DNA of 64,000 nt from Escherichia coli 042 (GTDB lineage Bacteria > Pseudomonadota > Gammaproteobacteria > Enterobacterales > Enterobacteriaceae), in the NCBI RefSeq assembly GCF_000027125.1, contig NC_017626.1. One strand, 5' to 3'. The notes below the pieces were generated by a model. It was given only the letters and a program-made list of their open reading frames with translations, searched no databases and had not been told where the DNA came from. Shown one piece after another: positions 40,915-43,989 of this stretch. Position numbers and translations under genes: made by a program. The stretch's first letter is position 1. Each line of letters begins with the position of its first letter.

Positions 40915-42579
40915 ATGTTAAAACGTATCAAAATTGTGACCAGCTTACTGCTGGTTTTGGCCGTTTTTGGCCTTTTACAACTGACATCAGGCGGTCTGTT
41001 CTTTAATGCCTTAAAGAATGACAAAGAAAATTTCACTGTTTTACAAACCATTCGCCAGCAGCAATCCACGCTGAATGGCAGCTGGGTCGCGTTGTTGCAG
41101 ACGCGTAACACCCTCAACCGCGCGGGTATCCGCTACATGATGGATCAGAATAATATTGGTAGCGGTTCAACCGTTGCTGAGCTGATGCAGAGTGCCAGTA
41201 TTTCGCTGAAACAGGCGGAAAAAAACTGGGCGGATTACGAAGCGTTGCCGCGTGACCCGCGTCAGAGCACCGCCGCAGCGGCAGAGATCAAACGTAATTA
41301 CGATATTTATCACAATGCGCTGGCGGAGCTGATCCAACTATTAGGTGCAGGTAAAATCAACGAGTTCTTTGATCAGCCGACCCAGGGATATCAGGACGGT
41401 TTCGAGAAGCAGTATGTAGCTTACATGGAGCAAGACGATCGGCTCTATGATATCGCCGTCAGCGATAACAATGCCTCCTACAGCCAGGCGATGTGGATTC
41501 TGGTGGGCGTGATGATCGTCGTACTGGCGGTCATCTTCGCCGTCTGGTTCGGTATTAAAGCCTCGCTGGTAGCGCCAATGAATCGCCTGATTGACAGCAT
41601 TCGTCATATTGCAGGCGGCGATCTGGTGAAACCGATTGAGGTGGATGGCTCTAATGAGATGGGGCAACTGGCAGAGAGTTTGCGCCATATGCAGGGAGAG
41701 CTGATGCGTACCGTCGGTGATGTGCGCAACGGGGCCAATGCCATCTATAGCGGTGCCAGCGAAATCGCCACCGGCAATAACGATCTCTCTTCGCGCACCG
41801 AGCAACAGGCCGCTTCGCTGGAAGAGACGGCAGCCAGCATGGAGCAACTGACCGCAACGGTGAAACAGAACGCCGAGAATGCGCGTCAGGCCAGCCATCT
41901 GGCGTTAAGTGCTTCTGAAACGGCGCAACGCGGCGGCAAAGTGGTGGATAACGTAGTACAGACCATGCGCGATATCTCCACCAGTTCGCAGAAAATCGCC
42001 GATATTATCAGCGTAATTGACGGCATTGCCTTCCAGACCAATATTCTGGCTTTGAACGCGGCGGTTGAAGCAGCGCGCGCGGGTGAGCAAGGGCGCGGTT
42101 TTGCGGTGGTCGCGGGTGAAGTGCGTAATCTGGCTCAGCGCAGCGCTCAGGCGGCTCGTGAAATTAAAAGCCTGATTGAAGACTCGGTGGGGAAAGTAGA
42201 TGTTGGCTCTACGCTGGTCGAAAGCGCAGGGGAAACAATGGCGGAGATTGTCAGTGCCGTGACCCGCGTGACGGACATTATGGGCGAAATTGCTTCTGCT
42301 TCTGATGAGCAGAGCCGTGGTATCGATCAGGTTGGCTTAGCGGTTGCTGAGATGGACCGGGTAACTCAACAGAACGCTGCGCTGGTGGAAGAATCTGCCG
42401 CTGCCGCCGCCGCGCTGGAAGAGCAGGCCAGTCGCCTGACCGAAGCTGTGGCAGTGTTCCGGATTCAGCAACAGCAGCAACAGCAGCGTGAAACATCGGC
42501 TGTGGTAAAAAACGTGACGCCAGCTACGCCGCGTAAAATGGCAGTGGCAGATAGCGGGGAGAACTGGGAAACGTTTTAA
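40915..42579 (+). CDS. tsr: methyl-accepting chemotaxis protein I (serine chemoreceptor)
   Basis: [23 protein letters not shown]... C-terminal NWETF pentapeptide; 554 aa with 7-Q run. Confidence 0.95.
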
Positions 42580-42592
42580 TCGCCATAAAAAT

Positions 42593-42618
42593 GCCCGATA
42601 AGCAAAATGTTATCGGGC
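42593..42618. terminator. bidirectional hairpin between convergent tsr and lgoT
   Basis: gcccgataa gcaaaatg ttatcgggc; A/T-rich flank on the lgoT side. Confidence 0.55.
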
Positions 42619-42627
42619 ATAGGGAGT

Positions 42628-43989
42628 TTAATCTTTACGCGGGTCGTTGATCGGCTGACGAACCAGGAAGATGTACGCCAGTGCTCCCGCTGCGGTGACG
42701 CAACCGCAGATGATTAGTGCCAGACGGAATGAGTGGGTGGTATCAACAATAAAACCAGTAATGATCGGCGCAAAAGAGGCGCAGATGAAGCTGGCAAAGT
42801 TCTGGATACTGCCCACCGACGCCGTCATGCGAGAAGCAACTGCGACGTGGATCAAGCCCCAGCAGGATGTTCCGGCAAAGTGAATACAGAACAGTGCCAT
42901 GCCAATCAGCAGAACCGCCGTCATGGATGTTGTCGCTTGCGGTACGACCAGCGTAAAGGCGGCAGAACAGAACATCCCGGCAATAATGCAGATCTTACGG
43001 CTTTTAATCGGAGCCATTCCCCCTTTGACCAGCCAGTCAGTAACGTAACCGTTGACCAGCATCCCGGCAGCCCCAAACAGGAAAGGGATAGCCGCCATCA
43101 ACCCTGTGCTTTTTAAATCCAGGTTATAGGCTGTTTGCAGGTAACCAGGAAGCCAGGCCAGATACAGCCACGCAGTGTAGTTGATGCCACTGAATCCGAG
43201 CATCATTCCCCACATTGTGCGGTTACGGAACAGGCTGCGCCATTCGGCAAAACTGAGCGGATCTCGGCGGGCATTGACGCTACCTGCATTGAGATAAGCT
43301 TGTTCAACGGCAGTCAGTTCTACGTGCTCGCGGTTGCGATAGAGCATATACCAGCCAATGGCGAGAAAAATCCCCAGCACACCAATGGTAATAAACATCC
43401 CACGCCAGCCCATCACCAGCATCATCGCCGCCAGAATCGGTGGGCTTACGGCAACGCCAATGGTAGAAGCTGCGTTGAAGAAGCCCATCGGGCGTCCGCG
43501 CTCTTTGATGTTGAACCAGTCGTTAATGACTTTTACGCCACATGGGTTCATCGGCGCTTCACCAATCCCCATACCGATACGCACCAACACGAACTGCGTA
43601 AAGCTGTGCACCATGCCAGACATGGCCTGGAACAGTGACCAGAAGAACATCCCCAGTCCCAGCATCAGGCGTGGGCCTTTACGATCCAATAGTGGGCCGC
43701 AAGGAAGTTGCGCAATCCCGTAAGCGAGTGAAAACACGGAGAGCAAAGCGCCGATTTCGGTGGCACTTAATCCCAATTCTTCACGAATCGTTAAATTTGC
43801 TACCGACAGCGAACTGCGGTCGAGATAATTGATTACCGCCGCAAAAAATAATAACAACATGGCGGTGGTTTGAATGCGTTTAATTCGGGTACTGCGTTGA
43901 ACTAATCCATCTGGTGGCACGGGAATATCTGCCGACGAAGATGGAGTAAATGAAGAACGCGGATCGAGGGTGATATTTTCTTTTTCCAC
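42628..43989 (-). CDS. lgoT: MFS L-galactonate transporter (YjjL)
   Basis: 453-aa MFS protein; K-12 order. Confidence 0.88.
   Translation of the reverse strand: MEKENITLDPRSSFTPSSSADIPVPPDGLVQRSTRIKRIQTTAMLLLFFAAVINYLDRSSLSVANLTIREELGLSATEIGALLSVFSLAYGIAQLPCGPLLDRKGPRLMLGLGMFFWSLFQAMSGMVHSFTQFVLVRIGMGIGEAPMNPCGVKVINDWFNIKERGRPMGFFNAASTIGVAVSPPILAAMMLVMGWRGMFITIGVLGIFLAIGWYMLYRNREHVELTAVEQAYLNAGSVNARRDPLSFAEWRSLFRNRTMWGMMLGFSGINYTAWLYLAWLPGYLQTAYNLDLKSTGLMAAIPFLFGAAGMLVNGYVTDWLVKGGMAPIKSRKICIIAGMFCSAAFTLVVPQATTSMTAVLLIGMALFCIHFAGTSCWGLIHVAVASRMTASVGSIQNFASFICASFAPIITGFIVDTTHSFRLALIICGCVTAAGALAYIFLVRQPINDPRKD

Follow-up and report, generated by a model that had tools for sequence, protein, structure and literature searches.

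The seven-glutamine run in the Tsr tether of Escherichia coli 042 is an allele of an in-frame 9-bp repeat, probably of ancestral length

The serine chemoreceptor Tsr of E. coli 042 carries seven consecutive glutamines at the start of its C-terminal tether. In the 64,000-nt stretch of DNA analysed here (the window), this run is a small in-frame variable-number tandem repeat with ordinary length polymorphism, and our preferred explanation, to which we give a probability of about 85%, is that it is the modal, ancestral-length allele of a repeat of the form (CAGCAACAG)n+CAG. This reading joins directly observed features (how the tract is built, how frequent each allele is, the steps in which its length changes, the state of the outgroups and recurrence on different haplotypes) into a conditional sequence of events. 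An older QQxQQxQ segment would have had both x positions changed to Gln in E. coli, giving two perfect 9-bp units. Misalignment of these units during replication or repair, the presumed mechanism, would then have removed one unit, leaving the four Gln of K-12 and the B strains, and the same misalignment would have added one unit to give the ten Gln of HS, LF82 and O104:H21. Such unit changes would be tolerated because they are in frame and fall within an unstructured linker; CheR and CheB would then be served by a tether of 30, 33 or 36 residues, probably with a slight shift in the reach of these adaptation enzymes. The four-codon allele keeps only 3 bp of homology, which would make it comparatively stable.

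The window protein is Tsr, a high-abundance MCP, by every feature tested: its domains, its orthology and locus, and an NWETF peptide carried on an unstructured linker whose 33 residues lie within the range of about 30-35 that defines the type. Its amino-acid identity to K-12 Tsr (b4355, NP_418775.1, 551 aa) is 99%, and the two share the same gene, locus, domain order and NWETF terminus; the window allele differs by one additional CAGCAACAG unit (seven vs four Gln), a tether of 33 vs 30 residues, and six substitutions. Near-identical matches to the window gene (at least 99.9%) are annotated 'tsr' by RefSeq, a label that the matching gene bears in 5,385 of 5,426 complete E. coli genomes. The TarH, HAMP and MCPsignal domains (Pfam PF02203, PF00672 and PF00015) are precomputed on the proteins listed as 100% identical (P0001-P0006), and the product of a more divergent allele described below (P0123, locus L094) also matches all three families. 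The locus order btsT-tsr-lgoT is that of K-12, with a btsT-like gene upstream and a gene for an lgoT-like MFS transporter downstream in convergent orientation, and the 25 kb around the tract are 100% identical to several E. coli chromosomes. A previous reading of this DNA, made from the sequence only, had placed seven Gln at 42466-42486 in a 554-aa ORF that it named tsr; the coordinates and the translation are correct, and the K-12 identity, locus order and domains bear out the gene assignment.

Table 1. Features of the tsr locus, in window coordinates
Feature	Position	Strand	Basis
tsr CDS (serine chemoreceptor, 554 aa including the 7-Gln allele)	40915..42579	+	ORF and K-12 identity
C-terminal flexible tether, Ile517-Glu549, 33 residues	42463..42561	+	literature and AF2
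9-bp tandem repeat (CAGCAACAG)x2 + CAG, Gln518-Gln524	42466..42486	+	sequence and TRF
Repeat unit 1	42466-42474	+	
Repeat unit 2	42475-42483	+	
Partial unit CAG	42484-42486	+	
NWETF terminus, Tsr residues 550-554	42562..42576	+	translation
tsr stop codon	42577-42579	+	
11-pair terminator-like hairpin (ATGCCCGATAA...TTATCGGGCAT) between convergent tsr and lgoT	42591..42620	.	consensus scan

The tract reads CAG CAA CAG CAG CAA CAG CAG in frame, which is two copies of CAGCAACAG followed by CAG. In MG1655 (NC_000913.3, 4591657-4593312), tsr encodes 551 aa and the tract is CAG CAA CAG CAG, a single CAGCAACAG copy and the same terminal CAG; the length and the shorter run that the sequence-only reading gives for K-12 Tsr are accurate, with four Gln in this strain. 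The sole indel between window and K-12 Tsr is the 9 bp of this one unit, within the Gln tract. Tandem Repeats Finder assigns the window tract a period of 9, about 2.3-2.4 copies and 100% matches. Read as a period-3 repeat, it reaches only 78% matches, and it does not behave as an uninterrupted repeat of 1-6 nt because the CAA codons break period 3. The number of CAGCAACAG copies is 1.3 in K-12, 3.3 in LF82 and O104:H21 and about 3.3-3.4 in HS, and the 12-mer CAGCAACAGCAG occurs twice in the seven-codon allele, offset by 9 nt. At a Gln content of 4.6%, chance would yield about 6e-4 runs of at least seven Gln per 1.3 million residues, showing that the seven-Gln run is not a chance product; all the long open frames of the window together hold two homopolymer runs of at least five residues, of which the Gln tract is one. 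On the minus strand, no ORF of at least 100 aa overlaps the tract, and nothing pointed to an antisense, other-strand or non-coding role, which was considered as a candidate.

The tract was surveyed in 5,426 complete E. coli genomes with a 57-nt probe that carries 18-nt flanks on either side. The site was found in 5,382 genomes, with 3,351 exact matches, 708 matches of the same length with 1-2 substitutions (part of which are explained by an ACA to GCA change, T to A, in the neighbouring codon, with 295 exact matches) and 1,323 matches with a 9-nt gap. Seven codons are present in 4,059 of the 5,382 genomes (75.4%), four in about 1,251 (23.2%) and ten in 72 (1.3%; 12 + 60), values to be read as database proportions, since clinical lineages and laboratory derivatives of K-12 and B are over-represented in RefSeq. 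With short four- and ten-codon probes these two alleles look alike, the 18-nt gap breaking the alignment into two segments that each match perfectly; a ten-codon probe with 25-nt flanks was used to tell them apart, and its 60-80% identity band holds 1,211 clear four-codon genomes. The bands also delimit the other lengths: the 90-95% band of the 57-nt probe is empty, excluding six- and nine-codon alleles, that of the four-codon probe holds a single record with a partial alignment, excluding three and five codons, and that of the ten-codon probe is empty, excluding eight. No 11-codon allele occurs among the rows listed, and the band arithmetic leaves room for 11.

An independent replicate came from metagenome contigs, scanned with a pattern that permits any 3-33 nt between the tract flanks. 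Across 120 contigs, the gap was 21 nt in 88 (a seven-codon share of 73%), 12 nt in 28 and 30 nt in 4, with no other length. An assembly artefact, also considered, is ruled out, because the sequence agrees across complete genomes and metagenome contigs that number in the thousands and are independent of each other. No one-codon step was found among the 5,382 genomes and 120 contigs; the occurrence of only 4, 7 and 10 codons shows that what mutates is a perfect 9-bp unit and not the triplet, the tract being (CAGCAACAG)n+CAG with n from 1 to 3. Head-to-tail CAGCAACAG copies therefore vary by whole units among strains, as in an in-frame VNTR.

The three lengths are spread over diverse strains. Seven codons are carried by O157:H7, O103:H2, JJ1886, ATCC 25922 and the window's own group; four by K-12, BL21/Rosetta, 744, OkiPb01696, ET479, N1 and S88; and ten by HS, KSC64, LF82 and O104:H21. 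The four-codon genomes listed are mostly natural isolates, with some laboratory K-12 or B derivatives, and the K-12-derived genomes listed all have four codons. We take O157:H7 to belong to phylogroup E, O103:H2 to B1, and JJ1886 and ATCC 25922 to B2.

These data bear directly on what the sequence-only reading had made of the run, namely that a CAG/CAA triplet tract prone to slippage had recently gained three codons over a normal form like that of K-12. K-12 is indeed three codons shorter, and the tract is repetitive and made of Gln codons only. But seven codons are the majority state in both samples, in about 75% of the complete genomes and in 88 of the 120 contigs; the surrounding 25 kb are 100% identical in several unrelated isolates; the seven-codon genomes, with phylogroups B1, B2 and E among them, are not one recent clone; the outgroups have the same seven positions (see below); and alleles one or two codons apart are missing from a tract that matches period 3 at 78%, its lengths moving in steps of the 9-bp CAGCAACAG instead. 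We give a recent triplet expansion almost no credence. That reading had itself named a seven-Gln tract in K-12 and most strains as the outcome that would overturn it: most strains do carry seven Gln, and K-12 carries four.

We next consider the ancestral state. Polarity was set with three Escherichia alleles (L034, P0122 and P0123) and with Tsr proteins of more distant genera, a comparison that did not extend to Salmonella, E. albertii or E. fergusonii, and with an outgroup-rooted tree built on the tsr gene only, tract columns left out. L034, a GTDB species representative labelled E. coli, has a Tsr of 554 aa that is 94% identical, and its tract is CAG CAA GCG CAA CAG CGT CAG (QQAQQRQ). P0122, from an unclassified Escherichia, is also 554 aa long and has QQTQQRQ at the tract position. 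P0123, an E. coli-like allele of again 554 aa with 53 nt differences from window tsr, reads ATT and then CAG CAA GAG CAG CAA CGC CAG (QQEQQRQ), followed by REASAVVK; its tract has the length and frame of the window tract and differs from it at 3 nucleotides, which fall within the third codon of each unit. Among the matches listed, Tsr is 553-557 aa long in Leclercia, Enterobacter, Citrobacter, Kluyvera, Pseudocitrobacter, Superficieibacter and Hafnia, and in several other-genus proteins the segment that follows FRI starts with QQDQQK, QQEQQK or QHDQQR, and with QQSQ in Kluyvera. In the tsr tree, the root has seven-codon alleles on both sides, with the four- and ten-codon alleles nested within these. 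That sister Escherichia share the seven codon positions indicates that the seven-codon frame QQxQQxQ is older than E. coli. Seven codons are thus probably the ancestral length, and the 551-aa Tsr of K-12 probably a derived form with one unit (9 bp) deleted, a polarity that we draw from sequence comparison.

The opposite polarity would make four codons ancestral in E. coli, a 9-bp duplication producing the seven-codon form, which would then have spread by selection or recombination and regained the outgroup length by chance. The two units are identical, as a recent duplication predicts, and fast evolution of the linker weakens the codon homology with the outgroups, which may not be airtight codon by codon. 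Yet P0123 is only 3 nucleotides away from a seven-Gln tract, at the third codon of each unit and with equal frame and length; seven-codon alleles are found to either side of the root and on every deep haplotype, with four-codon alleles nested beside seven-codon ones; and a duplication starting from the four-codon form would have only 3 bp of microhomology at its disposal. We consider a four-codon ancestor very unlikely. Alternatively, the two perfect 9-bp copies might reflect an early deletion and a later re-duplication that swept, a less parsimonious course of events.

P0123 calls for a separate remark: 17 of its 53 differing sites (L094, ENA contig k141_67667) lie within the last ~165 nt of tsr, the linker. 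This distribution suggests either a mosaic gene whose 3' end came from a more divergent Escherichia lineage or very fast evolution of the linker.

We compared haplotypes at the variable sites within about 300 nt on either side of the tract. The ten-codon allele of O104:H21 lies on the haplotype of three seven-codon alleles (the window, FORC_069 and EC-14-2-9); those of HS and KSC64 share the haplotype of the seven-codon O103:H2, and that of LF82 lies on a third haplotype. For the four-codon alleles, N1 differs from the seven-codon 98205 at 2 sites over the whole gene; near the tract a single site separates them, 5 nt upstream, which is 98205's own CGG to CTG change. N1 is further set apart from K-12-type four-codon alleles by a GCA lying 6 nt downstream of the tract, and ET479, another four-codon strain, is K-12-like downstream of the tract and different upstream. 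The presence of four- and ten-codon alleles on several seven-codon haplotypes, together with a Gln to His substitution found on all lengths, indicates that unit loss and unit gain each recurred. Copy-number change is in this sense recurrent (homoplasious) on local haplotypes, with recombination possibly explaining a part of it.

Indeed, the scattered four- and ten-codon alleles could in principle descend from a few mutated alleles moved by homologous recombination, not from repeated mutation. E. coli recombines, the mixed flanks of ET479 fit such an exchange, and the 3' neighbour of tsr varies between lgoT and a TRAP permease. Against this, the downstream GCA of N1 is not that of K-12-type alleles, and N1 is two sites in the whole gene from a seven-codon relative; the ten-codon alleles of O104:H21 and HS match different seven-codon haplotypes on both sides of the tract; and conversion patches would need to span few bases only. 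Transfer as a full account of the pattern is rather unlikely in our judgement; as a partial one, it may account for some of the allele sharing, ET479 being ambiguous.

Substitutions in and next to the tract were also seen. The His variant, a CAG to CAT change in the penultimate tract codon (window 42481-42483), was present in 11 of the 120 metagenome contigs (L096-L215), on four-, seven- and ten-codon alleles. A CAG to AAA (Lys) variant and a synonymous CAG to CAA variant were each found in single contigs. The CGG to CTG change of 98205 (L083) is Arg516Leu, at window 42460-42462, directly before the tract and at the tethering point of PMC10561060.

The K-12 Tsr tether has been described as 30 aa long counted from I517, that of Tar as 34 (PMC10561060), and the conserved part of Tsr ends at residue 517 (PMC4692393); NWETF is the peptide on which CheR and CheB dock (PMC7390727, PMC4692393). 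An AF2 model (a monomer predicted from a 30-sequence ortholog alignment, mean pLDDT 75, pTM 0.40) ends its last helix at residue 513 and has pLDDT below 50 for residues 519-554. The I517 boundary and the predicted disorder together make Gln518-524 the first stretch of the flexible, NWETF-bearing tether, in line with the sequence-only reading, which had put the run in a flexible tether that precedes NWETF; this part of the C-terminus is not conserved. Tether lengths are then 30 residues with four Gln (K-12), 33 with seven and 36 with ten. In the ortholog alignment, N550, E552, T553 and F554 are invariant and W551 is nearly so. Three of the six substitutions between window and K-12 Tsr (T to N, A to T and E to G) fall within the 29 alignable tether residues, the other three being spread over the remaining 517 residues, which indicates a much higher rate of evolution in the tether than in the receptor body.

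What would one unit do to adaptation? When the tether of Tar was engineered to lengths of 22-46 residues, the likeliest position of CheR shifted by 0.128 +/- 0.048 nm per residue (PMC10561060). Extrapolated from Tar, one unit would correspond to a shift of the CheR position of ~0.4 nm on about 10 nm, for 1.1 nm of contour length, so that the effect of each unit on CheR/CheB reach would probably be small or none. The engineered Tar tethers (22, 29, 34 and 46 residues; PMC10561060) and the Tsr alleles alike change the length of unstructured chain between receptor body and NWETF, and at the tract site the natural Tsr alleles differ in tether length only; the Tar constructs, however, are laboratory-made and change by 5-12 residues, whereas the Tsr alleles are natural and move in 3-residue steps.

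One may then ask whether the repeat is a selected tuning knob, the tether of 30, 33 or 36 residues adjusting CheR/CheB reach and hence the speed or precision of serine adaptation, a proposal compatible with the preferred reading. Units have been gained and lost repeatedly, on more than one background; in Tar, adaptation behaviour varies linearly with the length of an engineered tether (PMC10561060); and linker truncation affects receptor function, according to earlier work cited in that paper. Yet the repeat has three alleles only, which are stable within lineages (all the K-12-derived genomes listed have four codons), and the predicted shift of ~0.4 nm per unit is small on ~10 nm. Known contingency repeats have copy numbers far above two perfect units, which also counts against tuning. 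We consider the tuning knob unlikely, and hold as equally improbable a natural three-state length switch (30/33/36) under selection that would tune CheR/CheB reach across lineages; if it were true, K-12-based quantitative models of chemotaxis would describe an atypical, short-tether receptor. Under the preferred reading, the tract is otherwise probably an ordinary, near-neutral in-frame polymorphism in a fast-evolving disordered linker.

These results change how the K-12 tether should be viewed. K-12, like the B strains and roughly one in four sequenced E. coli, would have an atypically short Tsr tether with one unit deleted, and the common natural Tsr tether has 33 residues, close to the 34 of Tar, making the '30 versus 34' contrast specific to the K-12 allele. 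This contrast ('Tsr 30 aa versus Tar 34 aa') has been explained by methylation-site geometry (PMC10561060); because the common tether has 33 residues, that geometric argument for a shorter Tsr linker depends on the allele of K-12. Together, the three alleles found in nature form a minimal, ready test set for models of adaptation by tethered enzymes.

In-frame coding VNTRs whose copy number varies in whole units are known in bacteria, for example in the repeat region of E. coli tolA. The tsr tract is likewise a short in-frame repeat in a flexible segment, but comprises 1-3 units of 9 bp and three alleles. It also resembles contingency loci and eukaryotic CAG polyQ tracts in being made of CAG/CAA codons and homopolymeric Gln, and differs from them in being interrupted by CAA every third codon, in having no single-codon steps and no frameshifting switch, and in spanning only 4-10 Gln. 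The observed maximum of 10 Gln falls short of the tens of Gln of long, aggregation-type or prion-like polyQ. In the literature that could be searched, no earlier description of the tsr repeat polymorphism was found, which is weak evidence of novelty, and the Tsr protein variants are all in public databases under routine annotation. The 'TSR' of PMC6760104 is an unrelated Salmonella PCR target.

The surroundings of the gene vary as well. In the window, lgoT (42628-43989) faces tsr as its convergent neighbour, and so it does in K-12, O157 and JJ1886; in 2015C-4944, 98205, N1, HM670 and LF82 (among loci L078, L083, L088, L089 and L091) a 'TRAP transporter large permease' stands 3' of tsr instead. 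As the 3' neighbour differs among strains, the tsr stop codon adjoins a variable region. On the minus strand, a T-run follows the hairpin between tsr and lgoT; by its match to a consensus pattern this hairpin could plausibly serve both genes as a terminator, and terminator-like consensus sites are no more numerous here than in shuffled sequence. The hairpin lies outside the tract repeat and is context only.

In a few dozen complete genomes, tsr is absent or broken. No tsr match at all was found in 39 of the 5,426; strain a7 (hit H40) has only the first 212 nt of the gene left, in Z1323HEC0355 (H100/H332) the tsr match is split between two places, the break falling just past the tract, and BS-01 (H200) is named among the genomes with a missing or broken tsr.

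Finally, a second length variant lies upstream of the tether. A run of six Ala (Ala495-Ala500, GCN x6, window 42397-42414) occurs in the C-terminal methylation helix, between what we take to be the methylation sites E493 and E502 (K-12 numbering). The tsr of HM670 (L089, 1,662 bp), examined as a candidate six-codon Gln allele, was rejected as such: its 3-bp deletion sits in this poly-Ala run, not in the Gln tract. The resulting five-Ala allele is also that of protein P0058, and the identity band that would contain it holds at most 33 of 5,425 genomes. A one-residue Ala deletion within a coiled-coil helix is less obviously harmless than a Gln indel.
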